Assembly (NCBI GenBank): GCA_964587725.1 | Contig: CAZPLO010000022.1 | Location: 2,836 to 20,210 of the forward strand | DNA from: an uncultured archaeon | Lineage (GTDB): Archaea; Altiarchaeota; Altiarchaeia; IMC4; SCGC-AAA252-I15 | Direction of reading: 5' to 3' | DNA: 17,375 bases | Shown: positions 1,171-16,275 of the stretch, piece after piece | Position numbering within the stretch: position 1 is the stretch's first letter | Layout of the letters: the number at the start of each line of letters is the position of its first letter | The notes under the pieces: model-generated | Database searches by the model: none | The model's input: the letters and a program-made list of their open reading frames with translations, nothing else | What the model was told of the DNA's origin: nothing | Program-made: the position numbers and the translations under genes

Positions 1171-1752
1171 ATGGGAGAGCACCTGTATCCGTGGGGAGGG
1201 CGGTTCACGGAAGGCAACCCCGAATCCCCAGTGGCGGTGGTGACGTTGAGCGAAGACATGCAGCTGCCGGTCGACAGGGTGGCGTTGTACGGCAACATGA
1301 AGACCGAGAACCTGGGCGTCGAAAAAGTGGTTGCGAACGTGATTTCAAACCCCAACATAAGGTATGTGATAGTGTGCGGGACTGAGGTGCGGGGCCACCG
1401 CAGCGGCGAATCGCTGGTTAAACTGCATGAAAACGGCGTCGACGCCAACAACCGTGTGGTGGGGGCTAAGAGTGCGATACCCTACATAGAGAACCTGCCT
1501 CCGGAGGCGATACAGCGGTTCCGTGAGCAGGTTGAGTTGGTGGATTTGATTGGTGAAGGCGACGTGGAGAGGGTGATGTCTGCGGTGGAGGAACACGCCG
1601 CCGAAAAACCAGGCCCCTACGGGGAGCCGATGATGGTGGAGGCTGTGGCGAAGGAGAACGTGGTGGAAGTATTCCACACCGACTACGCCTTGCACCGCAG
1701 CGTCGACGTCGACCTGTACGGTGTGGTGTCGCCGATGCCGGAGGTGGGGTAA
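1171..1752 (+). CDS. mtrA: MtrA-like (MtxA-type) soluble corrinoid protein; tetrahydromethanopterin S-methyltransferase subunit A family
   Basis: MtrA motifs: GNPESPVAVVTL, KTENLGVEKVVANVISNPNIRY, CGTEVRGHRSG (His76 corresponds to the cobamide axial ligand), AIPYIENLPPEAIQRF. No C-terminal hydrophobic anchor. Confidence 0.92.
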   Translation: MGEHLYPWGGRFTEGNPESPVAVVTLSEDMQLPVDRVALYGNMKTENLGVEKVVANVISNPNIRYVIVCGTEVRGHRSGESLVKLHENGVDANNRVVGAKSAIPYIENLPPEAIQRFREQVELVDLIGEGDVERVMSAVEEHAAEKPGPYGEPMMVEAVAKENVVEVFHTDYALHRSVDVDLYGVVSPMPEVG

Positions 1753-2685
1753 ATGCATTCGTTCATGAAAGAGCAGGAGGTCGTAGAACTCGACGGCGTT
1801 AAGGTGGGGGGGCAGCCGGGCACGCATCCGACGCTGCTTCTGGGGACCCTGTTCTACGGGAGAGAGTTCAAGACCATGGACTCCACGGCGCTGACGAGGG
1901 CGAAGGAACTGGTTCTGGAGCAGGAGCGGCTCAGCCATGAAACGGGGGTGCCGGGGTTGGTGGATGTGTACGTCAAGGACGTGAAACACCTGGAGAAGGA
2001 AGTCAACCTGGTGTTGGATTCTACGGACCTTCCGTTCAGCATAGACAGCAGCGAACCAGAGACGAGGGCGGCCGCACTGAAGTACCTCGACAAAGTCGGG
2101 GCCTTGGACAGGGTAATCTACAATTCAGTAAACCTCGGCGTCACCGAAGACGAGATAAAAGCCCTTGAGAAACACACTCCCGCGGCGGCGATAGTCCTGG
2201 GGTATAACCCGCGGGACATGAGCGTCGACGGCAGGGCCGAGATTCTTGAAACGGGGGCGGGGATGGTGTGCGCCCCCGACAAGGGATTACTGGATGTTGC
2301 ACGGGACGCCGGAGTAGGCAAGCTTCTGCTGGACACTGGAGCGACTCCGTTCGGGAGCATGAGCGCGGAAACACTCAGGGCCATCCCGGTGTTCAAGAAC
2401 CGCTTCGGCCTGCCGGTGGGCTGCTCTATACACAATACGCTGGAGAGCTGGGGGTGGATGAAGGACTTGAGGAAAAAGGAGGAGCGTGCCTACGAGTGCG
2501 CGGACGCCGCAGCCAACGCGCTGGTGCCGCTGATGTCCGGGGACTTCATAGTATACGGTCCCGTTGCAACAGCCGACATAATCTTCCCGTCGATAGCGTT
2601 CGCGGACAAACTGGTCGCGGAGGGAGCGGCAGACTACTTCGGCGTGGAAATCTCTGAAGAACACCCGTACAATAAGCTGGAGTAA
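1753..2685 (+). CDS. mtrH: MtrH-like (MtxH-type) methyl-pterin:corrinoid methyltransferase
   Basis: N-terminus KEQEVVELDGVKVGGQPGTHPTLLLGTLFY, plus PFSIDSS, RVIYNSVN, GLPVGCSIHN and GDFIVYGPV, all typical of MtrH. Starts immediately after the mtrA stop, with a GGAGGTG RBS. Confidence 0.92.
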   Translation: MHSFMKEQEVVELDGVKVGGQPGTHPTLLLGTLFYGREFKTMDSTALTRAKELVLEQERLSHETGVPGLVDVYVKDVKHLEKEVNLVLDSTDLPFSIDSSEPETRAAALKYLDKVGALDRVIYNSVNLGVTEDEIKALEKHTPAAAIVLGYNPRDMSVDGRAEILETGAGMVCAPDKGLLDVARDAGVGKLLLDTGATPFGSMSAETLRAIPVFKNRFGLPVGCSIHNTLESWGWMKDLRKKEERAYECADAAANALVPLMSGDFIVYGPVATADIIFPSIAFADKLVAEGAADYFGVEISEEHPYNKLE

Positions 2686-2686
2686 G

Positions 2687-3361
2687 TCAGGCGAGGGTGA
2701 ACGAGCGGACCATTTCCTCAACCTCTGTTATGTAGTCGTCGTATGTTGAATCCAACGCCACGTATGTTAGGGTGTAGGAGTCGGTGCCGTCGAGGAGGTA
2801 GTATTGTAGGGCTTTGAGGGTGAACATCCCCTGCCGCATGGTGAAGACGTGGCGGTACCCCGGTAGTCCGTTTATGTTGGCCTCAGACACGTCGACCATC
2901 TCGTAGTCCGTGAACAGCACGGGCATCGCCTCCTCGTAGGCGGCCCGCACATCCTCTATGGGGAGGATGCCGTCGGTGTCGGTGCCTGATGCGACGCCTA
3001 GGTTCTCGTTCAAATTGTCTAACGGCCCGGTGGGCGGCGCATAGACTGTGACTATGGAATTCCCCTGCTTATCCTCAACCCTCCAGGTGTCTGGGTATTT
3101 GATGCTTATGCCCCCGCCGGAGTAGGTGAGGTATCTTACGGGCAGGTTGGTTGAGGCAGTAGTGGTGGAGGTGGTGGAAGTGGTGGTTGTCGTCGGCGGC
3201 TTGTCGCGGTCGCATATCCGGTCGCTGTTCTGGTCCAGGCAACATTCGCCGCCAACCAGGATGTATGGTGGATTGCATTGAGGAGTGGGTGGTTCTTCAG
3301 GGGCATAGCACATGCAGCCACTCACCAGAAGCAATGCCGTTAAAAACACGACCTCACGCAC
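2687..3361 (-). CDS. Putative lipoprotein with Cys-rich motif, Thr-rich linker and PsbP/DcrB-like domain
   Basis: Lipobox-like LLLVSGC, then CNPPYILVGGECCLDQNSDRICDRD, a poly-Thr linker, and ISIKYPDTW...YTLTYVA...EEMVRSFTL typical of the PsbP/Mog1-like fold. GTG start with a GGTGG RBS. Confidence 0.7.
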   Translation of the reverse strand: MREVVFLTALLLVSGCMCYAPEEPPTPQCNPPYILVGGECCLDQNSDRICDRDKPPTTTTTSTTSTTTASTNLPVRYLTYSGGGISIKYPDTWRVEDKQGNSIVTVYAPPTGPLDNLNENLGVASGTDTDGILPIEDVRAAYEEAMPVLFTDYEMVDVSEANINGLPGYRHVFTMRQGMFTLKALQYYLLDGTDSYTLTYVALDSTYDDYITEVEEMVRSFTLA

Positions 3362-3421
3362 GATACCACCGTAATGAATTAAATCTCAGCCTATAAATGT
3401 TGAATGCCAATAGAGTATGCG

Positions 3422-4312
3422 ATGATACCCACCACGGTGATAGGCAGCTACCCTGTGCGGCTCGACGGCACAGAGTATGCGAAGGCCTACTTCGGCGAGG
3501 TCGAAGTCCATGCGGTGGAGGACGCTATCGAACAGGCGGTGGAGAAGCAGGTAGATGCCGGAATCGACATAGTCAGCGACGGCCAGACCCGAGGCAACTT
3601 CGTCAACATCTACGCGAGAAACTTCCGCGGCGTCGTAATACAGGACAGACCCGTGGTATTGGATGAAATGGAGTATATGGGACCTTCGACTGTGGATGAC
3701 CAGATGAGGGCTAGGGAGCTGCTGCCAGACGGCGTCCAGCTGAAGGGCATCATCACCGGTCCCTATACGATGGCGAAGAACAGCGTCGACCGGCACTACG
3801 GCAGCGTCGAAGAGCTGGCGTATGCGTACGCCGACGGCCTGGCTGTGGAGGCTGAGGCGTTGGATGATATAGTGGATTACGTGCAGGTGGATGAGCCGTT
3901 TTTCAGCGTCGACTACCCCGAATACGGGGGGGAGCTGCTGGAGAAGGTTTTAGGTGGGGTGAAGAAGCCGAGGATGCTTCACGTCTGCGGCGACGTCTCC
4001 CACGTATTCGGGAAGTTCACGGAGTTCAACGTGGACGTGTTGGAGCACGAGTTCGCAGCCAATCCCCAGCTGTGGGATACGGTGAAGGAAGTGGACTTCG
4101 ACCAGAAACTCGGTGTAGGGGTGGTCCGGAGCGACCTGAACGACGTCGAATCCGTGGAGGAGATAGAGGCTAGGATGAAAAACGCCGTAGACCACGTCGA
4201 CGCCGATAAACTACTGTTTAATCCAGACTGCGGGCTCCGAAACCTCAGCCCGGACGCGGCATTCAACAAACTGAAAAACATGGTCGCGGCCAGGGACGAC
4301 ATCGGCAGGTAA
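3422..4312 (+). CDS. metE: Core (short) methionine synthase, methylcobalamin:homocysteine methyltransferase, MesA-like; MetE catalytic domain only
   Basis: Motifs TTVIGSYP, QVDAGIDIVSDGQ, KGIITGPYT and VQVDEP, with Zn ligands in HVCG, EHE and NPDCGL. About 300 aa, lacking the N-terminal folate-binding barrel of full MetE. ATG 3422 is preferred (TATAAA at 3392-3397); the alternative start is 3404. Confidence 0.9.
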   Translation: MIPTTVIGSYPVRLDGTEYAKAYFGEVEVHAVEDAIEQAVEKQVDAGIDIVSDGQTRGNFVNIYARNFRGVVIQDRPVVLDEMEYMGPSTVDDQMRARELLPDGVQLKGIITGPYTMAKNSVDRHYGSVEELAYAYADGLAVEAEALDDIVDYVQVDEPFFSVDYPEYGGELLEKVLGGVKKPRMLHVCGDVSHVFGKFTEFNVDVLEHEFAANPQLWDTVKEVDFDQKLGVGVVRSDLNDVESVEEIEARMKNAVDHVDADKLLFNPDCGLRNLSPDAAFNKLKNMVAARDDIGR

Positions 4313-4347
4313 ATTTAAGGGATGGTTCACATGGGGTATTGGTTGGG

Positions 4348-4668
4348 ATGAACACGCACTACTCTGATTTCAAGGAGGATCCGTCCGGCTTCTTCTACAT
4401 CTACTTGGACGGCGCCCGCAGGAACATCGTGGTCGAACACTACGTGAACGTGGTCAAGGACGTGGGGACGAGGCGGCGCACGGTGTCCGGGAAGCTCAAC
4501 AAGGTGTTCAAGGGCAACAACGCCGAAACACTGTACAGGACTATTTTGGGCAACAGCCTGGTGGGGCGGCTCGACCACGCAGCCTACCTCGGCTACGAGC
4601 TGGGGAAGGCGGAGACGGCTTTGAAGAACAACGTCAAATACGAGCAGGACCGCCCCCTCAAGTTTTAA
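4348..4668 (+). CDS. DUF4346 domain protein (stand-alone)
   Basis: Motifs DPSGFFYI, IVVEHY and LDHAAYLGYELGKAETAL...YEQD match DUF4346. ATG 4348 chosen; the ORF track uses TTG 4339. Confidence 0.85.
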   Translation: MNTHYSDFKEDPSGFFYIYLDGARRNIVVEHYVNVVKDVGTRRRTVSGKLNKVFKGNNAETLYRTILGNSLVGRLDHAAYLGYELGKAETALKNNVKYEQDRPLKF

Positions 4669-4720: not shown

Positions 4721-6010
4721 ATGGAGTCTACTGAGGAGAAGGCGGCTGCAGCCAGGGACGCGGCACTGAAACTGGCTAAAACCCCTACGGGGGTAAAGGA
4801 CAAGGCGTTGTCGAGGATAGCGGAGATGCTGGAGGAACGCCGCGAGGAGATACTGGACGCGAACGCCCAAGACTGCAGCGAGTCGAAGGACAAGATAAGC
4901 CCGGCCCTGTATAAGAGGCTGGAGCTCGGCGAAGACAAGATAGACAGGATGATAGAGGGCATCGAGGACCTCATCGAACTCGACGACCCCGTCGGAGAAA
5001 CCCTGTATGCGATGGAGCTCGGCAAAAACCTGGAACTCTACAAGGTGACGGTGCCCATAGGCGTGATAGGCGCGATATTCGAGGCCCGCCCAGACGCCCT
5101 CGTCCAGATAAGCACGCTGTGTTTGAAGAGCGGGAACGCCGTCATACTCAAGGGCGGAAGCGAAGCCCGGCACAGCAACAGCATGCTCTACGCCCTCATA
5201 AAAACCGCGTCTGAGGAGGGTGGGATACCTGGGGGGTGGATTCAGCTGGTGGAGACCCGGGAGGAGGTGAAGGAGATGCTCGCGTTGGACGGGTACATAA
5301 GCCTCCTCATACCCCGGGGCAGCGGCGAATTCGTCCGATACATACAGGACAACACCAGGATACCCGTGCTCGGCCACGCCTCCGGCGTCTGCCACGTATA
5401 CGTCGACGGCAAAGCAGACATAAATAAGGCGGTGAGGATAGCGTTCGACGCGAAATGCCAGTACCCCGCAGTATGCAATGCGATGGAGACCCTGCTGGTC
5501 GATGAAAAAATCGCGGGCGAGTTCCTGCCCAGGATATGGGAGGAATACGGGAGAGAGGGGGTATCGGCTAAAGGGGACGAACGGGCGTGCAAGATACTCG
5601 GAGACCTGAAGAAGGCCTGTGAAGTGGATTGGAGCATGGAATACAACGACCTCGTGTTGAACGTGAAAGTAGTCGGCGGCATCAAAGAAGCGGTGGACAG
5701 GATAAACAGGTACGGTTCCGGCCACACCGACGCCATCGTCACCGAAGACAAAAAGGCTGCGCGTTACTTCATAGACACCGTCGACAGCGGCAGCGTCATG
5801 TGGAACGCATCCACGCGGTTCAGCGACGGATACCGCTACGGCCTAGGAGCTGAGGTGGGCATAAGCACCAACAAGATACACGCACGGGGGCCCGTGGGTT
5901 TGGAGGGTCTGGTAATCCACAAGTGGATTCTAGTCGGCGACGGACAGACCGTAGCAGACTACAAAAAGAAGAAATACGCGCATAAGAGACTCAGGAAGAG
6001 GTGGAAGTGA
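4721..6010 (+). CDS. proA: Gamma-glutamyl phosphate reductase (glutamate-5-semialdehyde dehydrogenase)
   Basis: Motifs VPIGVIGAIFEARP, LKSGNAVILKGGSEA, LIPRGS, CNAMETLLV, YGSGHTDAI, NASTRFSDGYRYGLGAEVGIST, HARGPVGL. Confidence 0.97.
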   Translation: MESTEEKAAAARDAALKLAKTPTGVKDKALSRIAEMLEERREEILDANAQDCSESKDKISPALYKRLELGEDKIDRMIEGIEDLIELDDPVGETLYAMELGKNLELYKVTVPIGVIGAIFEARPDALVQISTLCLKSGNAVILKGGSEARHSNSMLYALIKTASEEGGIPGGWIQLVETREEVKEMLALDGYISLLIPRGSGEFVRYIQDNTRIPVLGHASGVCHVYVDGKADINKAVRIAFDAKCQYPAVCNAMETLLVDEKIAGEFLPRIWEEYGREGVSAKGDERACKILGDLKKACEVDWSMEYNDLVLNVKVVGGIKEAVDRINRYGSGHTDAIVTEDKKAARYFIDTVDSGSVMWNASTRFSDGYRYGLGAEVGISTNKIHARGPVGLEGLVIHKWILVGDGQTVADYKKKKYAHKRLRKRWK

Positions 6011-6572
6011 ACTTTTCCCTCATCCGCTGGAGTATGGGCTCCACCAACCCCCGCCTCATGTCGGTGTCGGCGTGTTCCGCGAACACGTTGTCGCCTCTCC
6101 TGCTCATGTCACCGTCCCTGTCGGACAGTATCCTCCGGGCGAAAAGCTCGTTTAACTGCTTCTGCGTCTGAGTCGCATCCTCTTCGGCGTATTCCAGAAC
6201 ATCGGATACCCTGGAGCCGTTGGATTTGGCCCGCGCCACAGCGGAGACGAAGCCGACTCCGAAGCCCCCTATGAAATCCCGGACATCGTCTTTGCTCATG
6301 CGAAGCTCCTCCATCGGATACTCGCCCACGAACTTCACCTTGTGGGTTCCTCCGTGGGGGTAGACCATTTTCGTGAGCATCATCACCGCATCCAGTGTCT
6401 GAGAAGCCTCGCCGACGGTCAACGCAGGCTTGCACGCGTCTGAAAAAGCCTTCGACAGAGACTTCGGAATGTCTTCTCCGGGCTGTAACATCCCCTCGGA
6501 TATGAGCTTCTGTTTGAGAAGGCTGCCGTATTCGTCGGGGGCCTCCTGCGGGCCACCCTTTACCTTCTGCAT
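5991..6572 (-). CDS. Hypothetical protein (193 aa)
   Basis: Fills the gap between genes, ATG start with a T-rich TATA-like box about 24 nt upstream, protein-like composition. No family recognised. Overlaps the proA 3' end by 20 nt. Confidence 0.65.
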   Translation of the reverse strand: MQKVKGGPQEAPDEYGSLLKQKLISEGMLQPGEDIPKSLSKAFSDACKPALTVGEASQTLDAVMMLTKMVYPHGGTHKVKFVGEYPMEELRMSKDDVRDFIGGFGVGFVSAVARAKSNGSRVSDVLEYAEEDATQTQKQLNELFARRILSDRDGDMSRRGDNVFAEHADTDMRRGLVEPILQRMREKFTSTSS

Positions 6573-6652: not shown

Positions 6653-8329
6653 TTAGTCTGGTAGTGGAGGGGGGACGGGGATGTCATCCGCGTCTCCGCC
6701 GCCGAGGCGGCAGTCACCGTCCGCGTACGCCACGATTCCTCCGTAGACTTCATCGTCTCCGAAGACATGGCCTTCACCTATGCTGTACCACTGCTGTCCG
6801 CCGGAATCCCACATGTAGAGGCGGTGGAAGACACAGTTGCCACCTATCTCATCCAGCGACTTATCCTCCATGTCTTTGGTGACGGGTATGAAGTTCCAGC
6901 CCGCATTCACAGGCATCCCGTTGTAGCTGGTGTAACGCCATACTGTGAACACGAACTCGTCGTCGACAGGCGTGTACACCCAGAACGCGTTGTATTGTAG
7001 GTATTTCCTGAACTCCACTGCACCCATCAAACGGACGGCCTCCGCGAAGGTGGCGTATCGTTTCTCGTCCTTCAAGTAGACGAAAAAGTATTTCCTGGGA
7101 TGGATCTCAGGCAGCGCCACAATCTCGTCCACAACCTCCTCGGACAGGCCTGCGGACGAGGCAGAAACCTCGGCCTCAGAGTCAACTGCAATAATCTCTT
7201 TCACAGTCGTCACAGGATAGTCTGGCCTGCCCACACCCGGCAGTGACACTATGTTCCAGCCCACATCCAACTCGACCTCTACCTTCTCGCCGGGGGGTGT
7301 CGGCGGGGTCGTGGGGACGCCCACATACAACACCGCATGCCCGGACCCGGCTCCGTCTTCCGACTTAGCGGTGACGGTGAAACTGTACGGACGCCTCGCA
7401 AGTATCTTCTGGGACGCGGAGTTAACCTCCAACTCCTCATAGGATACTGTGGACTCCATTATCATGGCGGAGGTGTCGACCTCCAGTTCAAACGTCGTCT
7501 TGTGGCCGGGCTGCACCCTCACCTCACCTGGGTGGTTGAGTGCGAACGGCAGACCGCTCACACCTATACTGTAGATTATTGGTTCCACAATACATTTCTC
7601 GTTGGACGTTGACGCGCACTTCACCGCAACATGCGGGTCTGCTACAGTAACCGCATACACCGCTGTCTCTCCGTTGCGGACGTACTTCCTGGTGGGCTGC
7701 ACACTTACCGTCACCTGCCTCGGGTCTGGTCTGCTTCTAACGTTCAAGGTTGCGGACTCGGAGTCGAAGGAGCCGTCGTCTCCTGAAGCCGATACCTTAA
7801 ACCTGTACCTGCTGATCGAGGAGACATCGTCTGCGCTGTATTCTTCAACCCCCGATTGCGCAACAGCTATGATGGCTGAGGTGTCAACCACCAGGTCGAA
7901 CGCCTTTATTGAACCAGGGTATATCTCTATCTCCCGTTCATATTTTAGGTTGAACGGAAGTCCGGAGACAGATATCTTATAGGTCGTCGGCTCCACTACG
8001 CAGTCGATCTCCTGGCCTTCAGATACTGGACATAGGGGCCTTGGATTCAGGTTCCTAACAGCAATGTTATACACTGCCGCCCCCCCAGTAACTACAGTCT
8101 GGGATTCAGGAACCACTGCAACCTGAACCCTTCTCGCATACTCTACCCCATCTACTATCTGGGCTTCAACCGCCCTTACAGAGGGTGTGGCCTGAGCAGC
8201 CACAGCCTCGGCATAAACTCTGTTATAGAGTTCGGCCTCCACCGGCCCCGCAGCCATTTCACTCGCTGCGAGCGCCTGGGAAGCCAACAACACCAAAACC
8301 AAAACCGTGTAATGCTTTTTCACTTGCAT
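6653..8329 (-). CDS. Secreted/cell-surface protein with two tandem beta-sandwich-like repeats and a C-terminal GWN-motif domain
   Basis: Signal peptide MQVKKHYTVLVLVLLASQALA. Two internal repeats share AVY, C-x-C loop, VEP..Y.I.VSGLPF, F.L.VDTSA and Y.F.V.A. C-terminal part has GWNIVSLP and GWNFIPVT and a Pro-rich tail. Confidence 0.75.
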   Translation of the reverse strand: MQVKKHYTVLVLVLLASQALAASEMAAGPVEAELYNRVYAEAVAAQATPSVRAVEAQIVDGVEYARRVQVAVVPESQTVVTGGAAVYNIAVRNLNPRPLCPVSEGQEIDCVVEPTTYKISVSGLPFNLKYEREIEIYPGSIKAFDLVVDTSAIIAVAQSGVEEYSADDVSSISRYRFKVSASGDDGSFDSESATLNVRSRPDPRQVTVSVQPTRKYVRNGETAVYAVTVADPHVAVKCASTSNEKCIVEPIIYSIGVSGLPFALNHPGEVRVQPGHKTTFELEVDTSAMIMESTVSYEELEVNSASQKILARRPYSFTVTAKSEDGAGSGHAVLYVGVPTTPPTPPGEKVEVELDVGWNIVSLPGVGRPDYPVTTVKEIIAVDSEAEVSASSAGLSEEVVDEIVALPEIHPRKYFFVYLKDEKRYATFAEAVRLMGAVEFRKYLQYNAFWVYTPVDDEFVFTVWRYTSYNGMPVNAGWNFIPVTKDMEDKSLDEIGGNCVFHRLYMWDSGGQQWYSIGEGHVFGDDEVYGGIVAYADGDCRLGGGDADDIPVPPPLPD

Positions 8330-8436
8330 TTCACCTCACACACGATAACACATGAACGCAATATAAGGTTTCCGGTGTACAGGAGTGAACAGGGGTGAAC
8401 ACCGCTTATTTAGGTGAAATACCATGGTATCACAGT

Positions 8437-9222
8437 ATGGTGCGGGTTGGCTTTATCGGGGTGGGGCGGATGGGCTCCGCACTCCTGCAGGGGTTCATCG
8501 GGAAGGGCCTGCTGGAGAAGGAAGACGTTCTCGCATACGATAAAAACCCGGACGCCCTGGATTCCCTGGACGTGCAGTCGAGGTATTCGGCGTTCGAAGT
8601 CGTGCAGGACAGCGACGCAGTGTTCCTGTGCGTGAAGCCGCAGGACGTCGATGACGTCCTCGACGAGATAGAGGATATCGTGGGGAGCAGGCTCATAGTG
8701 TCGATTGCCGCGGGGGTGTCGACCAAGGCGATTGAGAAGAGGCTGAAGGAGGCGCGGGTCATGCGGGTGATGCCCAACACCCCCGCCTTGCTGCATGAGA
8801 TGGCGGCCGCCTACTGCCTCGGCAAACGCGCCACCGAGGAGGATGCAGTATACGTGGGGAGCCTCCTCAACAGTCTCGGCGTAGCCTACAGGGTGGAGGA
8901 GAAGCTCATGGATGCCGTAACAGGATTGAGCGGCAGCGGACCCGCCTACGTATACTATTTCATAAAGCATATGGCCGCCGCAGGCGTGAAGGAGAAGCTG
9001 CCGGAGGAGGTAGCCTTCAACCTCACGGTGCAGACGTTCATGGGCGCCATCGACATGGTCGTGCAGTCCGGGAAGACGCCGGATGAGCTGATAAAGGAGG
9101 TTAAGAGTCCTGGGGGGACGACTGAGGAGGGGTTGAACGTATTGGACGAACTGAAGGTGGATAAAGCGTTGGAGAAGGCTGTTAAGGCGGCTGCGAAGAA
9201 ATCCAAGGAACTGGGTAAGTGA
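8437..9222 (+). CDS. proC: Pyrroline-5-carboxylate reductase
   Basis: Rossmann motif VGFIGVGRMG, plus LCVKPQ, VSIAAGV, RVMPNTP, TGLSGSGPAY and SPGGTT. Start at ATG 8437 (MVRVGF), with a TATA-like TTATTTA about 25 nt upstream. Confidence 0.96.
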   Translation: MVRVGFIGVGRMGSALLQGFIGKGLLEKEDVLAYDKNPDALDSLDVQSRYSAFEVVQDSDAVFLCVKPQDVDDVLDEIEDIVGSRLIVSIAAGVSTKAIEKRLKEARVMRVMPNTPALLHEMAAAYCLGKRATEEDAVYVGSLLNSLGVAYRVEEKLMDAVTGLSGSGPAYVYYFIKHMAAAGVKEKLPEEVAFNLTVQTFMGAIDMVVQSGKTPDELIKEVKSPGGTTEEGLNVLDELKVDKALEKAVKAAAKKSKELGK

Positions 9223-9966: not shown

Positions 9967-11028
9967 TTATTTCAGCGCCCGTACTATGGCGTCGGTCATC
10001 TCTGCTGTGCCGGCTTTTGTTTTCGGGTTTAGGTCTGGTGTGACGTATGCTCCGTCTGCGATTACTGTTTCCACTGCCGTGCGGAGTCTGTCCGCTGCCT
10101 GGTGTTCGCCGAGGTAGTCGAGCATCAGCGCCGCGGACAGAACCAGTGCGGTGGGGTTGGCTATGCCTTTCCCTGCGATGTCTGGTGCGCTGCCGTGGAC
10201 GGCCTCGAACACCGCGTATTCTTCGCCTACGTTGGCTCCCGGGGCTACGCCGAGGCCGCCGGTGAGGCCGGCGCACAAATCCGAGACGACGTCACCGTAC
10301 AGGTTCGGGAGCACGAGGACGTCGTAGTCGCGGGGGTGCTGCACCAGGTGCATGCACAGCGCGTCTATGAGAACGTGGTCGAATTCCGTGCCAGGGTGTT
10401 TGGCGGCGACCTCCTCCGACGTATGGAGGAACAGTCCGTCGCTGAACTTCATGATGTTCGATTTCGTCACGACAGTGACTTTACTCCGCTTGTTCATTGC
10501 AGCGTAGTCGAATGCGTACTCGACTATGCGCTCGGACGCGGACTTTGAAATCGGCTTCAAACTGACGGCGGAGTCGGAGGCTATTTTCTTCTGCCGGGTC
10601 TCTTCAACAAACTCCAGCAGCTTCATAGTGTCGTCCGCGCCGACGTCGTATTCTATGCCCGCGTACATGCCTTCCGTGTTCTCCCTGACGACGACGATGT
10701 CGACGCCGGGGAAGGAATTCGGTATTCCCTCGATGGTCCTGCATGGGCGGACGCACGCGTACAGGTCGAGTGTCTGGCGGAGGCGAACGTTGACGCTTCT
10801 GAAGCCTTTGCCGACGGGCGTGGTTATGGGGGCCTTCAACGCCACCCTGTTTTCGCGGATGGAATCCAGTATGCGCTCCGGCAGCGGGTCCCCTTCTTTT
10901 TTGTAGACTTCCGCGCCCGCTTCCTGAACGTCCCACCCTATTTCAGCAACGGCGTCCACGCACTTCCGAGCTGCTTCAGCGACCTCCGGACCTACCCCGT
11001 CACCGGTGATGAGCGTTACCTTATGCAT
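9967..11028 (-). CDS. icd: Isocitrate dehydrogenase (isocitrate/isopropylmalate dehydrogenase family)
   Basis: Motifs GDGVGPEV, TPVGKGFRSVNVRLR (S-x-N-xx-LR, IDH-type), RENTEG, KSNIMK, NLYGDVVSD, FEAVHGSAPDIAG. Coupled to the aconitase gene. Confidence 0.85.
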   Translation of the reverse strand: MHKVTLITGDGVGPEVAEAARKCVDAVAEIGWDVQEAGAEVYKKEGDPLPERILDSIRENRVALKAPITTPVGKGFRSVNVRLRQTLDLYACVRPCRTIEGIPNSFPGVDIVVVRENTEGMYAGIEYDVGADDTMKLLEFVEETRQKKIASDSAVSLKPISKSASERIVEYAFDYAAMNKRSKVTVVTKSNIMKFSDGLFLHTSEEVAAKHPGTEFDHVLIDALCMHLVQHPRDYDVLVLPNLYGDVVSDLCAGLTGGLGVAPGANVGEEYAVFEAVHGSAPDIAGKGIANPTALVLSAALMLDYLGEHQAADRLRTAVETVIADGAYVTPDLNPKTKAGTAEMTDAIVRALK

Positions 11029-12889
11029 TTTTCACGTAGTTCAAGAGGCCGCCTGCCTTCACGATTTCGAGCTGCCGGGGCGTGAGAGTGTGCGAGACCT
11101 TAAGTGGTTTGCCTCCGGCGGACACGTTGAAGGAGTCGCCTTTAGATTCTACCGTCAGGGTGTCTCCCTGTCGTATGATGTCGTAGCCGTCTTCCAGCTT
11201 CAACGGGAGTATGCCGAAGTTGATGAGGTTGGATTCGTGTATTCTAGCGAACGACTTCGCCAGCACCGCCTTCACACCCAAGTACATGGGCGCCAATGCG
11301 GCGTGCTCGCGGCTGCTGCCCTGCCCGTAGTTTTCCCCGGCCACGATGAAGCCGCCTTCCTTCTCTTTGGCTCGTGACGCAAACGACGGGTCGAGTTGTT
11401 CGAACACGTGCTCGCTTATCGCGGGTATGTTGCTGCGGAGCGGCAGTATTTTTGCTCCTGCTGGCATGATGTGGTCTGTGGTTACGTTGTCTTCCACCTT
11501 CAGCAGAACTTCTCCTTCAACCCTGTCGGGTAATGGCTTGTTCATGGGCAGCGGCTTGATGTTGGGGCCGCGCACCACTTCACCGCCCGTCGGCTTCAGT
11601 ATGAGGCTGTCGTCGACCGTGAACTTCTCGGGCAGGTTGACTTCAGGGTATTCTCCGAGCTCGCGCGGGTCTGTCAGCTCTCCAGTCAATGCGGTTGCGA
11701 CTGCGGTTTCGACGCTGGTCAGGTATACTCCTGCGTCAGCTGTGCCGCTGCGGCCCTCGAAGTTCCGGTTGAACGTGCGGATAGAGACCCCCCCGGACGG
11801 GGGGCTCTGGCCCATGCCTATGCATGGCCCGCATGCGGACTCCAGTATGCGGGCGCCCGCCTTAACGAGTTTCGTGAGGCCCCCGTTTTCCGACATCATG
11901 GTGAGGACCTGCCGGCTGCCGGGCGACATAGTGAGGCTGACACCCGGGTGGATGGTTTTCCCATCTAAGAGTTCCGCGGCGGCAATCATGTCCTGGAGGC
12001 TGCTGTTGGTGCATGAGCCTATGCACACCTGATCCACTTTCAACCCTGATATTTCACACACTTTCACCACGTTGCCTGGGCTGTGGGGGCGGGCCACCAA
12101 CGGCTCCAGCTTCGAAAGGTCGATGGTGATGACTTCACTGTATTCCGCGCCCTCGTCGGCGGACATTTCAACCCAGTCTCTTTCGCGGCCCTGCGCCTTC
12201 AGGAATTCCTTGGTTACTTCGTCGCTGGGGAACACGGATGTGGTCGCGCCGAGTTCAGTGCCCATGTTGGTTATGGTGGCGCGCTCCGGCACGGACAGTG
12301 TCTTCACGCCGGGGCCGTAGTACTCGAATATTTTGCCGACGCCGCCCTTCACGTCCAGTCGGCGGAGCAGCTCCAGGATCACGTCCTTCGCCGACACCCA
12401 CGGCTTCAGCGAGCCGGTGAGTTCCACGCCCACTACCACGGGCTTCTTGATTCTGTAGGGGTGACCGGCCATGGCGAGCGCGACGTCCAAGCCGCCTGCG
12501 CCCATCGCAATCATGGCCATCCCCCCTGCGGTGGGGGTGTGGCTGTCGGAGCCAAGAAGCGTCTTACCCGGTTTAGCGAATCTTTCAAGGTGTACTTGGT
12601 GGCAGATGCCGTTGCCGGGCTTGCTGAACAGTATCCCGTACTTTGATGCCACCGTCTGGAGGTAGCGGTGGTCGTCGGCGTTCATGTAGCCCGTCTGGAG
12701 GGTGTTGTGGTCGACGTAGCTGACACTCAGCTCCGTCTTCACCTTTGGGAGCCCCAGCGCCTCGAACTGGAGGTACGCCAGGGTGCCTGTGGCGTCCTGG
12801 GTGAGCGTCTGGTCTATGCCAACCGCCAATAAGCCGTCTTCCCCCTGTTTAATGTGGGAGTCCAGTATTTTCTCCGCCAGAGTCGGCAT
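11021..12889 (-). CDS. acn: Aconitate hydratase (single-chain, about 620 aa, anaerobe/archaeal type)
   Basis: Motifs TQDATGT, VDHN, GICHQ, GSDSHT, [4Fe-4S] ligands in IGSCTN and ACGPCIG, RTFNRNF, TTDHI, NYGQGSSREHA. The swivel domain is fused. Confidence 0.92.
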   Translation of the reverse strand: MPTLAEKILDSHIKQGEDGLLAVGIDQTLTQDATGTLAYLQFEALGLPKVKTELSVSYVDHNTLQTGYMNADDHRYLQTVASKYGILFSKPGNGICHQVHLERFAKPGKTLLGSDSHTPTAGGMAMIAMGAGGLDVALAMAGHPYRIKKPVVVGVELTGSLKPWVSAKDVILELLRRLDVKGGVGKIFEYYGPGVKTLSVPERATITNMGTELGATTSVFPSDEVTKEFLKAQGRERDWVEMSADEGAEYSEVITIDLSKLEPLVARPHSPGNVVKVCEISGLKVDQVCIGSCTNSSLQDMIAAAELLDGKTIHPGVSLTMSPGSRQVLTMMSENGGLTKLVKAGARILESACGPCIGMGQSPPSGGVSIRTFNRNFEGRSGTADAGVYLTSVETAVATALTGELTDPRELGEYPEVNLPEKFTVDDSLILKPTGGEVVRGPNIKPLPMNKPLPDRVEGEVLLKVEDNVTTDHIMPAGAKILPLRSNIPAISEHVFEQLDPSFASRAKEKEGGFIVAGENYGQGSSREHAALAPMYLGVKAVLAKSFARIHESNLINFGILPLKLEDGYDIIRQGDTLTVESKGDSFNVSAGGKPLKVSHTLTPRQLEIVKAGGLLNYVKNA

Positions 12890-13621: not shown

Positions 13622-14182
13622 TTACTTGTGAACGACCTTCAAAAGGTCGGCCTTCGTTATTATGCCGAGGGTCTTCCCCTGGTCTTGAACAAGCACTGCG
13701 GGGTTGTGTTCCAGCAGCGTGGACACCACGCTCAACGGCGTCTCCGACTTCACGATGGGGAACGCGTCCTCCATGTGCTCCCCCACCTCCTCCCTGGAGA
13801 ATGTCTTGGTGTCGACACCCTTTGAAATCAGCTCCAGTATCACCTTCTCGGAGAATGCGCCTATGATTCTGTCGCCGTCGAACACCGGCATCTGTGACAG
13901 GCTGTGTTTCTTCAGCTTCCCTGCCGCGTATTCGATGGAGGCGTCTTGCTGCACGCCCACCACGTCCTTGGTCATGATGGCTGCCGCGTCGACCTCCTTA
14001 CCCTTCAGTTCGTCCAACGCCAGGAATATCTGGGCGACCTTGCTGTACCGGGGGTCAACCGTTCCCGCTTCCAGGCGCGCTATCAGACTCTGGCTGACGT
14101 CGGCTTTTTCAGCGAGTTCCGTCTGGGTAAGGCCCAGCCTCTTCCTGAGTTTGCCTATCTCCGTCAGCGGCGGAAGTTGCAT
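13622..14182 (-). CDS. XRE-family HTH transcriptional regulator with two C-terminal CBS domains (COG3620-like)
   Basis: HTH segment LRKRLGLTQTELAEKADVSQSLIARLEAGTVDPRYS; CBS segments IMTKDVV...SQMPV and GIITKADLL. Start set at ATG 14182 (MQLPP), with a GGGGTGTGA RBS-like sequence. Confidence 0.92.
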   Translation of the reverse strand: MQLPPLTEIGKLRKRLGLTQTELAEKADVSQSLIARLEAGTVDPRYSKVAQIFLALDELKGKEVDAAAIMTKDVVGVQQDASIEYAAGKLKKHSLSQMPVFDGDRIIGAFSEKVILELISKGVDTKTFSREEVGEHMEDAFPIVKSETPLSVVSTLLEHNPAVLVQDQGKTLGIITKADLLKVVHK

Positions 14183-14240
14183 TACATCACACCCCAATCG
14201 TTCGGCGCCCCACCCCTGAGACGCTTTATTCAACGATGCA

Positions 14241-14366
14241 TATTCTCGTATGCATATGCATATTCGAATAGGTATTAAAAGCTTGGTTTATTCCCATTCG
14301 TATGCTTAAAAAGATTATTTATGCAATATAGCATAAAATAGGAGCATGCGTATTTAAATATGAATA
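14241..14366. promoter_or_regulatory. Divergent promoter region with repeated palindromic operator-like sites TATKC-N6-GMATA
   Basis: Exact matches at 14241-14256, 14255-14270 and 14320-14335; near-matches at 14289-14304 and 14351-14366. The last overlaps the TATTTAAATA box about 21 nt upstream of ATG 14381. Confidence 0.6.
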
Positions 14367-14380
14367 CCGAATTTTCTTCA

Positions 14381-15880
14381 ATGGCGAAGACCATATCCGA
14401 GATAAACGAGAGAATCAGGCGGGGCGACGCAGTGGTCGTGCGCGCGGATGAGATGCCTGAGATAGTCGCCGACAGGGGCGCGAAGAAGGCGGCGAAGGAA
14501 GTGGACGTCGTGACCACGGGAACCTTCGGCGCCATGTGCAGCTCTGGCGCATTCATCAACTTCGGACACAGCAACCCTCCGATTAAGATACAGCAGCTGT
14601 GGCTGAACGATGTCCCCGCCTACGCAGGACTCGCGGCGGTCGACTGCTACATAGGCGCGACCGAACTCAGCGTCGACAGAGGATTCGACTACGGCGGCGG
14701 ACACGTCATCGAAGACCTCATAGCAGGCAATGAGATAAACGTGCGGGCGACCTCCTACGGAACCGACTGCTACCCACGCAGGAAACTCGAAACCACCGTC
14801 ACGCTCCAGGACCTGAACCAGGCGTACCTCTTCAACCCACGCAACAGCTACCAGCGATACAACGCCGCAACCAACACCTCAGACCAGAAGCTCAGAACCT
14901 ACATGGGGACGCTGCTGCCCGACACCGGCAACGTCAACTACGCAGGCACCGGAGAGATAAGCCCCCTCAACAACGACCCCGGATACATGACCATCGGGTT
15001 CGGCACCAGGATACTGCTGGGGGGGGCCGTGGGGCGCATAGTCGGAGAGGGCACCCAGCATTCGCCGCAGAAAAAATTCGGCACCCTCGCAGTGAAAGCG
15101 GACCTGAAGGACATGAGCACAGATTACATACGGGGGGCGAGCATAACAGGGTACGGCACCAGTTTGTTCGTGGGCATAGGCACACCAATCCCCATACTCA
15201 ACGAGGAACTCGCGAAGTCCACTGCAGTCACCAACTCCGACATAGAGGTGTCGGTCCTCGACTACAGCGTCCCCAGAACAGACCGGCCGACTGTGAAGAA
15301 AACCACATACGAGGAACTCCTCTCAGGCAGCGTTGAAATAGACGGGAACGAAGTCAAAGCCGCCCCGCTGTCGAGCCTCAAAATAGCGTATGACATAATG
15401 GAGGAGCTCCGCGCGTGGATTGAGGAGAAGAGATACTATTTCGCGGAGACCGTGGACAGCCTGCCGAGGGACCGGGAGTTCAAACCCATGCGTGTGAGCC
15501 GGCACGTCCCACGGGTGTCGGAGATAATGACCAGGAAAGTGCACACCGCACGGGTGAAGGACTCCGCCAAAAGAGTATCCAACCTCATGGTGGAGAAGGA
15601 AGTCGACCAGATACCCATACTCGACAAAGAGGGCTCTCTGGTCGGGATAGTGACGTCCTTCGACTTCACCAAGGGACTGGCCAGGAACAGAAGAAGGCTG
15701 TCCGACATAATGACGAAGAATGTCATCACGTCGAGGGCGGACGAAACAATAGACGAGGTGTCCAGGAAACTGGAGAAGCACGGGATAAACGCCACCCCCG
15801 TGGTCGACGAACAGAAGAGCGTCATAGGCATCGTCACGTTGTCCGACATAAGCAGGGCGTATGAGAGGTTGAGGAGATGA
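14381..15880 (+). CDS. Homocysteine biosynthesis enzyme, L-aspartate semialdehyde sulfurtransferase (DUF39 plus 2 CBS; MA1821/MJ0100 family)
   Basis: N-terminus MAKTISEINERI, conserved-Cys motifs VDVVTTGTFGAMCSSG and YGTDCYP, YGGGHVIEDL, FNPRNSYQ, GEISPLNNDP, and a C-terminal CBS pair. Confidence 0.93.
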   Translation: MAKTISEINERIRRGDAVVVRADEMPEIVADRGAKKAAKEVDVVTTGTFGAMCSSGAFINFGHSNPPIKIQQLWLNDVPAYAGLAAVDCYIGATELSVDRGFDYGGGHVIEDLIAGNEINVRATSYGTDCYPRRKLETTVTLQDLNQAYLFNPRNSYQRYNAATNTSDQKLRTYMGTLLPDTGNVNYAGTGEISPLNNDPGYMTIGFGTRILLGGAVGRIVGEGTQHSPQKKFGTLAVKADLKDMSTDYIRGASITGYGTSLFVGIGTPIPILNEELAKSTAVTNSDIEVSVLDYSVPRTDRPTVKKTTYEELLSGSVEIDGNEVKAAPLSSLKIAYDIMEELRAWIEEKRYYFAETVDSLPRDREFKPMRVSRHVPRVSEIMTRKVHTARVKDSAKRVSNLMVEKEVDQIPILDKEGSLVGIVTSFDFTKGLARNRRRLSDIMTKNVITSRADETIDEVSRKLEKHGINATPVVDEQKSVIGIVTLSDISRAYERLRR

Positions 15881-16275
15881 ACAGGTACGTGCTCAGATAC
15901 ACGGCAAAGGAAACCAAGAGTCCGATACTTGCAGAGGCAGTGAAAGACACGGGGGTGTTGGTGAACATCCTCATAGCGGACGTTGAGTCTAACCAGGGGA
16001 GGATGGTTGTGGCTGTTCTCGGCGACGGCAGACAGCAGAAGAAGCTCGTCGACTACCTCCGGGAGAAAGGGGTGGAGGTGGAGAAGCTCGAAGCCCACGT
16101 GCTGAAAGACGACGACCGGTGCGTGGACTGCTGCCTCTGCTTCGGGGTCTGCCCCACCAAGGCCATAACCGTCGGCGAAGACCGGAGCATGGTGTTGGAC
16201 AACGGCGAATGCATCCGCTGCGGAGCGTGCGTGGAAGTCTGCCCCACGAAAGCACTGAAGATGCAGGAGGCCTGA
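15877..16275 (+). CDS. NIL domain plus 2x[4Fe-4S] ferredoxin (MA1822/MJ0099-like partner of the homocysteine synthase)
   Basis: NIL motif PILAEAVKDTGVLVNILIA; ferredoxin motifs CVDCCLCFGVCP and CIRCGACVEVCP; ATGA overlap with the upstream gene. Confidence 0.92.
   Translation: MNRYVLRYTAKETKSPILAEAVKDTGVLVNILIADVESNQGRMVVAVLGDGRQQKKLVDYLREKGVEVEKLEAHVLKDDDRCVDCCLCFGVCPTKAITVGEDRSMVLDNGECIRCGACVEVCPTKALKMQEA

Follow-up and report, generated by a model that had tools for sequence, protein, structure and literature searches.

Among the described systems closest to the one treated here are the single-domain ("core") methionine synthases of archaea and the protein pair MtrA/MtrH. The MesA family of core synthases was delimited by an identity of at least about 40% to the characterised Methanothermobacter enzyme and comprises methanogen sequences only; for this family MtrA was predicted as methyl donor from phylogenetic profiles in methanogens, and tests of MesA together with MtrA were called for (PMC7857596). 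MtrH has been argued to be a remote homologue of the pterin-binding (MeTr) domain of MetH (PMC4632066). Outside methanogens the role of MtrAH has been called unclear (PMC9635834), and for Asgard lineages the reading of mtrAH in terms of coenzyme M (CoM) has been repeated (PMC9723677). Both proteins were inferred for the last archaeal common ancestor (LACA) and used in ancestral reconstructions (PMC13473441). Here we analyse a stretch of 17,375 nucleotides (the window) from an uncultured archaeon of the Altiarchaeota (assembly GCA_964587725.1, contig CAZPLO010000022.1, positions 2,836 to 20,210), which carries genes for an MtrA, an MtrH, a core MetE and a DUF4346 protein. In all likelihood these four genes constitute a cassette for a soluble, modular, cobamide-dependent methionine synthase, in which the chemistry of MetH would be carried out by mostly different parts. 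We favour this interpretation because the gene order is tight in two phyla, the MetE is the sole methionine synthase visible, the corrinoid iron-sulfur protein (CoFeSP) and Mcr are absent, and the zinc- and homocysteine-binding residues are invariant.

According to the listing of open reading frames (ORFs) and scans with Pfam and NCBIfam models, the gene order in the source genome is CDP-alcohol phosphatidyltransferase, mtrA, mtrH, a PsbP_2-like gene on the opposite strand, core metE, DUF4346, proA and, further on, proC. The four genes in question are:

1171-1752, forward strand: mtrA, soluble corrinoid-binding protein, 193 aa (PF04208, E 5.6e-56)
1753-2685, forward strand: mtrH, pterin-binding TIM-barrel methyltransferase, 310 aa (PF02007, E 6.4e-77)
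3404-4312, forward strand: core methionine synthase, the MetE catalytic domain alone, ORF of 302 aa (PF01717, E 3.7e-41)
4339-4668, forward strand: DUF4346 gene, fourth conserved member of the cassette, ORF of 109 aa (PF14251, E 8.5e-25)

The start codon of mtrH follows directly on the stop codon of mtrA. For metE the likely start is the ATG at 3422, which gives a protein of 296 aa and fits the length of the database copy (296 aa); for DUF4346 it is likely the ATG at 4348, giving 106 aa. A first-pass annotation, made from the nucleotide sequence without database searches, had picked out the adjacent mtrA and mtrH and, one gene further on, a methionine synthase of about 300 aa lacking the folate-binding half, followed by DUF4346. 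These observations are borne out by the profile scans, with the intervening gene lying on the opposite strand.

To survey the cassette in other species, an alignment of 20 MetE sequences (A1) was compared with one genome per prokaryote species, and the best 80 of 152 stretches were kept. According to the record titles, these loci comprise 62 from Thermoplasmatota (including Thermoplasmata, "Methanomassiliicoccales" metagenome-assembled genomes (MAGs) and Halarchaeoplasmatales), 8 from Altiarchaeota, 6 from Methanobacteriota (one labelled Thermococci) and one each from Undinarchaeota, Aenigmatarchaeota, Nanohalarchaeota and Odinarchaeota, where the labels of single MAGs may be wrong. Counting only loci with enough flanking DNA, mtrH lies directly upstream of metE in 69 of 75, mtrA precedes mtrH in 66 of 72, and DUF4346 is directly downstream of metE in 67 of 75. 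All four genes are contiguous and co-directional in 56 of the 67 loci that have both flanks. The synteny across archaeal MAGs that the first-pass annotation had proposed to look for thus exists, and the adjacency of the four genes is not due to chance: the tight cassette is conserved in two archaeal phyla. The most distant match (Odinarchaeia, 36% identity) is among the loci without the upstream mtrA-mtrH pair.

The junctions are equally tight. In the 34 loci whose four ORFs are all of typical length, a gap of at most 10 nt or an overlap is found between mtrA and mtrH in all 34, between mtrH and metE in 27, and between metE and DUF4346 in 30. Spacings of -4, -1 and 0 are common at the first two junctions and overlaps at the third; as starts were taken as the first ATG, GTG or TTG after a stop codon, the sizes of the overlaps may be overestimated. 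Overlapping start and stop codons link mtrH to metE in 24 of the 34 loci. Upstream of mtrA, a gene for a MetF-like MTHFR on the same strand is the direct neighbour in 12 of the 54 loci for which 1 kb or more of upstream sequence is available. It is the one exception among the flanking ORFs: when those of the 80 loci were clustered and the ten commonest clusters assigned by Pfam, the others proved to be housekeeping genes without relation to the cassette, most of them on the opposite strand (e.g. OB-fold protein, RadA, peptidase C25, aminotransferase, NAD kinase, DUF1616).

A comparison of 61 Altiarchaeota genomes provides a phylum-level view. MtrA occurs in 14 of them, and all ten genomes with a cassette-type MetE (a single, lower-scoring Meth_synt_2 match), which belong to the family of the source genome, have MtrA as well. 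In seven of these ten, mtrA, mtrH and metE are directly contiguous, usually followed by DUF4346, proA and proC. Of the remaining three, one has the expected order divided over two contig ends, one has a gap of about 2 kb, and the third is the source genome with its PsbP-like interruption. Altiarchaeota without MtrA have instead two adjacent Meth_synt_2 genes or a full-length MetE, the sole overlap being genome G008 with a marginal Meth_synt_2 match; the tandem arrangement corresponds to the split MetE of PMC7857596. With this complementary distribution, the two kinds of synthase replace each other. In four Altiarchaeota without MetE or with a marginal match only (G047, G045, G043 and G008), mtrH and DUF4346 are adjacent in every case and an MtrA-like gene stands alone elsewhere. 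In two of the four, the mtrH-DUF4346 pair is preceded by a triosephosphate isomerase gene, and in G045 the lone MtrA-like gene lies about 1 kb from an HcyBio/NIL-ferredoxin gene pair.

The latter genomes bear on the question of whether MtrA is the direct methyl donor. Conceivably, the core MetE is a methionine synthase fed by free methylcobamide or by another corrinoid protein, while MtrAH-DUF4346 constitutes a separate, co-regulated module. In vitro, characterised core synthases do use free methylcobalamin (PMC7857596), and in the four Altiarchaeota MtrA, MtrH and DUF4346 occur in the absence of MetE. Such a division is difficult to reconcile with the start-stop overlap of mtrH and metE and with an order that is kept across two phyla. 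Moreover, apart from MtrA the source genome encodes B12-binding domains only in three radical SAM proteins (three PF02310 matches), and there is no CoFeSP. We therefore regard an independent supply of the synthase as unlikely, and MtrA as the probable donor in the proposed modular synthase.

The cobalt ligand of MtrA is a histidine (residue 84). In the cassette protein, residues 9-154 can be aligned with 5LAA, the solved structure of a cytoplasmic MtrA domain (E 7.8e-47), the histidine of the "GH" motif (H76) is in register, and H76 is invariant in 35 cassette sequences. The protein ends at residue 193 without a hydrophobic stretch, as compared with 238-240 residues of the full-length MtrA chains in the PDB. 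The first-pass annotation was hence right in describing an MtrA that retains its histidine ligand and lacks a transmembrane tail. What the cassette proteins have instead is a C-terminal tail, conserved and about 35 residues long (residues ~160-193), with an invariant histidine (H175, motif "ALHS") and a near-invariant glycine (G184) in the 35 sequences. In an AF2 model the core reaches pLDDT values above 90, and the tail, with two short strands, values of 49-79. The tail sits where canonical MtrA has a linker and a membrane helix, and where fusion proteins have the linker to DUF4346.

MtrH scores 276.3 bits against the mtrH equivalog TIGR01114 (cut-off 271.4) and 178.9 bits against the model of the tetrahydrofolate-using MtgA, which is below the cut-off of that model. 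A profile search of the contigs revealed one MtrA and one MtrH match in the source genome. MtrE was not found in the genome, MtrB, C, D, F and G not having been searched individually; this is in line with the earlier claim that the membrane pump is missing. With an MtrA devoid of the C-terminal membrane helix and a genome devoid of MtrE, the locus does not represent a canonical membrane Mtr complex.

In the core MetE, PF01717 spans residues 8-296 of 302 (profile positions 1-321 of 324), and there is no separate folate-binding half; a Meth_synt_1 match (E 2e-4) is below the cut-off and covers the same residues as PF01717. The zinc ligands (H193, C195, E216 and C276) and the homocysteine-binding residues (S15, Q61 and D163), which are listed in section 11 of PMC7857596, are invariant in 20 as well as in 35 sequences and align with the corresponding motifs of 3RPD. 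The glutamine found at the Glu484 position is the residue reported in that section for MesA and MesC. The protein narrowly passes the NCBIfam "methionine synthase" model NF002119 (260 bits, cut-off 258), which we would equate with MesA on the basis of one control genome over the cut-off.

The first-pass annotation had called the synthase MesA-like. Phylogenetic analysis supports this designation in part. A HMMER scan of 1.84 billion representatives yielded only 38 proteins at E <= 1e-30. The nearest homologues of the MetE bear Altiarchaeota or Altiarchaeales names. For the trees, 110 representatives of 270-360 aa (from 150 listed) were combined with 35 cassette sequences; all 145 rows were used in FastTree, and 63 of them in a quick IQ-TREE run, 82 being left out to save time. 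In both trees all cassette MetE sequences fall into one clade (SH-aLRT 96), together with 11 unlabelled representatives. The adjacent clade (SH-aLRT 95) has named members from Methanosphaera, Methanocalculus, a Methanosarcinales MAG, Odin- and Baldrarchaeota, and Hydrothermarchaeota; the tree does not settle the branching order of the cassette clade, the clade of methanogen homologues and a small third group. According to BLASTP, the source MetE shares 32% identity with the Methanosphaera and 32% with the Methanocalculus homologue, both taken as proxies for the characterised MesA. Since the cassette proteins form a separate clade and have 32% identity to the two methanogen homologues, they are, as judged from these comparisons, MesA-like but probably outside MesA as defined in PMC7857596.

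The genomic context argues that this protein is the methionine synthase of its host. The source genome is a MAG of 1.56 Mb in 48 contigs (92% complete), and 30 further cassette genomes, hand-picked from the 80 loci for long contigs and a spread of labels, were searched in addition (31 cassette genomes in total). The source genome contains a single Meth_synt_2 match and the other cassette genomes one each in 28 of 30, all 30 having at least this match. The S-methyl_trans domain of the MetH type (PF02574) was not found in the source genome, nor was the MetH/BHMT type in any of the 30 others. The cassette MetE is therefore the only recognisable methionine synthase in the source genome and in 28 of the 30 others. 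MCR_alpha/McrA was found neither in the source genome nor in the 30 others, CdhD/CoFeSP not in the source genome, and CdhD scored over the cut-off in only one of the 30. The genome search that had been proposed at the outset thus returned no mcrA, mtrE, metH-type domain or second MetE, a CoFeSP donor is excluded by its absence, and the conjecture of a biosynthetic module in a non-methanogen agrees with the lack of McrA in all 31 genomes.

These data also speak to a different substrate. The cassette might encode a methyl-pterin:thiol methyltransferase that acts on a different thiol from homocysteine, e.g. CoM, with the MetE-like protein acting as an MT2-type enzyme. For an environmental Methanomassiliicoccales genome, mtrAH was indeed proposed to be a methyl-tetrahydrofolate:CoM methyltransferase (PMC6147122), and the MetE-like protein has weak matches to URO-D (E 6.4e-08) and MtaA-type (E 1.2e-06) models. 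However, in the absence of McrA methyl-CoM would have no use, the protein exceeds the equivalog cut-off for methionine synthase, and nearly all of these genomes would be left without such an enzyme. A function in CoM methylation is therefore very improbable, and we retain homocysteine as the presumed acceptor of the modular synthase.

Corrinoid methyl transfers are reversible in principle. Accordingly, one may ask whether the cassette operates in the opposite direction, with methyl groups from methionine or another methylated thiol passing via MtrA and MtrH into the pterin pool, as in the hypothesis that MtrAH outside methanogens funnels methyl groups into the Wood-Ljungdahl pathway (PMC9635834). 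The carbonyl branch of that pathway (CdhD) is absent, however, from the source genome and from 29 of the 30 others, no other route to methionine is visible, and in the 12 loci mentioned above metF precedes the cassette in biosynthetic order. In addition, the window itself contains genes for homocysteine biosynthesis:

14360-15880, forward strand: homocysteine supply, HcyBio (COG1900-type) gene with CBS domains (PF01837, E 2.7e-142)
15877-16275, forward strand: homocysteine supply, ferredoxin gene with NIL and 4Fe-4S (Fer4) domains

By its domain content, this pair would provide homocysteine, the substrate of the synthase. It is located about 10 kb downstream of the cassette, and the association is loose; in locus L024, too, the pair is situated downstream of the cassette. 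A gene for an HTH-CBS regulator (13622-14233, reverse strand) is divergent from the pair, and all three genes come after the cassette in L024. A catabolic role seems to us highly improbable, and we consider the modular synthase to work in the direction of methionine.

With regard to the methyl donor, the first-pass annotation had drawn a chain from a methyl-pterin via MtrH and the cobamide of MtrA to the core MetE. The chain as such is supported by comparative genomics; its pterin is likelier to be methyl-folate than methyl-tetrahydromethanopterin (methyl-H4MPT). MTHFR/MetF is encoded once in the source genome, where it is flanked by unrelated genes (topoisomerase VI, DFP and radical SAM), and occurs in 28 of the 30 other cassette genomes; Mer was not found in the source genome and is over the cut-off in none of the 30. 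A canonical dihydropteroate synthase (DHPS; E ~1e-84 to 1e-95) is encoded by 17 of the 21 genomes of the source family, most cassette genomes included. Because MetF is present and sometimes part of the operon, Mer is absent and relatives have canonical DHPS, methyl-folate made by MetF is more likely the pterin than methyl-H4MPT. As to the cofactor, the three B12-binding radical SAM proteins imply that the source organism uses cobamides. CobS, which acts in nucleotide-loop assembly, was detected in only one of the 31 cassette genomes, the source genome not being that one, so that the cobamide would have to be scavenged; in terms of gene content, the cassette archaea look like cobamide scavengers.

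The DUF4346 protein passes PF14251 clearly (87.8 bits, gathering cut-off 29.6) and matches positions 287-369 of NF002128, a model of a fused MtrA-DUF4346 protein. An AF2 model computed from 35 sequences (pLDDT 89.4) has three strands and two helices. Foldseek detected no match to this fold in the PDB at E <= 0.001 (best E 0.14), a sequence search of the PDB gave chance-level xylanase matches (E 0.26 or worse), and a protein atlas search returned other DUF4346 clusters only, at 0.76. The family has 14 invariant positions, among them D14, E33, H80, Y83, E87 and Q103, a pattern more suggestive of a binding site than of a spacer alone. Out of 65 longer homologues, 62 are fusions of MtrA and DUF4346, with MtrA preceding DUF4346 in all three that were checked, and the other three have the architecture DUF6513-Pterin_bind-DUF4346. 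The DHPS-like fusions in Altiarchaeota carry DUF4346 at the same C-terminal position. The fusions with MtrA and the mtrH-DUF4346 pairs tie DUF4346 to the MtrA/MtrH half-reaction, which makes it a candidate accessory of that half. A four-chain complex prediction (MtrA, MtrH and MetE, with DUF4346 as partner) speaks neither for nor against binding, as the controls did not separate.

Several further features of the family deserve mention. Three of the 62 MtrA+DUF4346 fusions (P0371, P0376 and P0381; confirmed for P0371) carry a phosphopantetheine-attachment (acyl carrier) domain, and one MtrA-DUF4346 protein of 513 aa is labelled Verrucomicrobiae, so that the pair occurs in bacteria, too. About two thirds of the aligned DUF4346 sequences, from many Thermoplasmatota loci (L044-L098), terminate in "Q(G/D)GC", the last residue being a cysteine; forms from Altiarchaeota and some others have a different end ("YEQD..."). 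The DUF6513-Pterin_bind-DUF4346 (dihydropteroate synthase-like) protein of about 500 aa is found in most Altiarchaeota genomes and has no match in the ten cassette genomes, which show stand-alone DUF4346 only. We considered that DUF4346 might be a split-off piece of the DHPS-like enzyme and rejected this idea, since in genera g8 and g9 the fusion coexists with the stand-alone gene and most of the longer forms are MtrA fusions.

From these data we infer the course of the reaction, including the nature of the pterin, the direction of the flux and the part played by DUF4346. A MetF-type reductase would make a 5-methyl-tetrahydropterin, most likely methyl-tetrahydrofolate. The barrel of MtrH would then move the methyl group onto the Co(I) of a cobamide bound to the anchorless MtrA, and the resulting methyl-Co(III)-MtrA would dock onto the zinc-containing core MetE, where homocysteine is methylated to methionine. 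DUF4346 may act as a fourth subunit in the MtrA/MtrH half-reaction, with a role in docking, as a lid or in binding the pterin tail.

A number of points weigh against this model. In the window itself the cassette is interrupted; in the set of 80 loci the linkage is conserved. The features concerned are:

2687-3361, reverse strand: PsbP_2-like putative lipoprotein, 224 aa (PF18933, E 1.9e-08), which interrupts the cassette and is not part of the system
3392-3397, forward strand: TATAAA, hexamer resembling a TATA box and located 25-30 nt upstream of ATG 3422 (read from the sequence)

As the PsbP_2-like gene, whose product has an N-terminal "LLLVSGC" and a Thr-rich linker, is on the opposite strand, the four cassette genes cannot be one transcript in the source genome. 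The gene is not found between mtrH and metE in the same-genus genome or in other relatives; an ancestral operon has thus been split by its insertion. The metE-DUF4346 unit probably has a promoter of its own in the source genome, and the hexamer is a candidate promoter of a leaderless metE-DUF4346 transcript. In the same-genus genome, mtrA, mtrH and metE are contiguous, and DUF4346-proA is elsewhere on the contig, DUF4346 being about 240 kb away from the rest. The four Altiarchaeota that have MtrA, MtrH and DUF4346 and no clear MetE indicate that the module can serve, or survive without, a MetE acceptor. Canonical DHPS was not found in the source genome or its genus-mate among the 21 family genomes, which concerns the supply of the pterin. 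The scarcity of CobS has been mentioned, and a RamA/RACo-type activase (RACo_C_ter) was found in none of the 31 cassette genomes, and no candidate for reactivating oxidised cobamide emerged. Finally, all absences rest on MAGs, with completeness reported for the source genome alone (92%), and the 30 comparison genomes are a non-random selection of our own.

The remainder of the window shows the following. In the source genome and in several Altiarchaeota relatives, DUF4346 is followed by proA and proC (window positions 4721-6010 and 8395-9222), which in the source genome are separated by two opposite-strand ORFs (5991-6572 and 6653-8329), the second encoding a 558-aa protein with weak Ig-like matches only. 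On the reverse strand (9967-12889) there is a gene for a 622-aa aconitase-family protein with fused large and small subunit domains, and after it, with an overlap of 8 nt, one of the isocitrate/isopropylmalate dehydrogenase family. From about residue 56 onward, the ORF at 16119-16964 matches the PRK04334.1-x models, which NCBIfam labels "hypothetical protein" (E 9e-69); because the ORF as listed overlaps with the ferredoxin gene at its start, translation probably begins further downstream. The stretch is contained in four DNA runs, all from a single study of a microbial mat metagenome, and one of these may be its source; no RNA run is listed as containing it.

If the model is true, the cassette represents a third design of methionine synthase and provides many Thermoplasmatota and some Altiarchaeota with a cobamide-dependent enzyme, with implications for the dependence on vitamin B12 in sediments and mats. 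"Methanogenesis" genes would then have a job outside methane metabolism. MtrA and MtrH serve as markers of methane metabolism and in ancestral reconstructions, and the reading of both would change: where the two proteins make methionine, their presence says nothing about methanogenesis. For DUF4346, the cassette gives a first functional context. A more far-reaching hypothesis, which we put forward as speculative and rather doubtful, is that soluble MtrA-MtrH(-DUF4346) is primarily anabolic and constitutes the cobamide arm of an archaeal methionine synthase. Orphan MtrAH of non-methanogenic archaea and the MtrA/MtrH of LACA would then reflect methionine synthesis and not remnants of methanogenesis, the membrane Mtr pump would be a later elaboration, and DUF4346 would be a hitherto unrecognised docking or lid subunit replacing the cap and linker functions of MetH.

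In the literature searched we found no published description of the four-gene cassette and no mention of DUF4346. Several known systems share parts of it. With the membrane Mtr complex it has in common an MtrA close to the 5LAA domain and an MtrH that passes the mtrH equivalog, and the first half-reaction is probably the same. In contrast, there is neither MtrE nor a membrane helix of MtrA, the acceptor is presumably homocysteine via MetE rather than CoM, and no ion pumping is expected. The MtxXAH system of Methanosarcinales is encoded in an operon with mtxX (PMC4632066), whereas the neighbours of mtrAH here are the genes for CDP-alcohol phosphatidyltransferase and the PsbP-like protein, and metE in relatives. 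The mtrAH genes of Methanomassiliicoccales and SG8-5 Thermoplasmata (PMC6147122; 10.1101/2020.03.09.984617) are probably the same as those of the cassette. They likewise encode a soluble MtrA with an unusual C-terminal extension and a divergent MtrH, and occur with a folate pathway. Yet either a methyl-tetrahydrofolate:CoM methyltransferase or no function was proposed, and neither main text mentions metE or methionine. In "Ca. Methanomethylicus mesodigestum" (PMC7886697), a CoP-MtrH couple lies beside a metE homologue and an anabolic role is raised in one sentence; its corrinoid protein is, however, of the methyltransferase-associated CoP type instead of MtrA, and the account covers neither DUF4346 nor a survey.

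Among established methionine synthases, MetH shares the three half-functions, i.e. a barrel that binds the pterin, a carrier of the corrinoid and a zinc site for homocysteine. In the cassette each of these has a polypeptide of its own, the modules for the corrinoid (MtrA fold) and for homocysteine (MetE fold) come from other families than in MetH, no S-methyl_trans domain was found and no domain for SAM-dependent reactivation was identified. Like the cassette MetE, MesB is a core synthase encoded beside its presumed corrinoid donor (the CoFeSP genes acsC and acsD, in one operon; PMC7857596). The donor proposed for MesB and MesC is, however, the Wood-Ljungdahl pathway's iron-sulfur corrinoid protein, whereas here it would be MtrA with its own loader MtrH, CdhD being absent from the source genome and 29 of the 30 others. 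MesA likewise consists of one MetE catalytic domain (about 300 aa) and has an HCEC zinc site, a glutamine at the Glu484 position and MtrA as predicted donor (PMC7857596); NF002119 is the nearest curated model, and methanogen-named sequences form the neighbouring clade. It differs in that the cassette organisms, without McrA in any of the 31 genomes, are outside the methanogens to which MesA was restricted, and in that the cassette MetE, at 32% identity to methanogen homologues, has a clade of its own. Since one conserved cassette names all players, a reconstitution with the four proteins can address both the physiological methyl donor of core synthases and the role of MtrAH outside methanogens. 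The link between MesA and MtrA was drawn from phylogenetic profiles alone (PMC7857596), whereas here MtrA is linked to the synthase by physical clustering of the genes, with mtrH, DUF4346 and sometimes metF as further members of the cluster.

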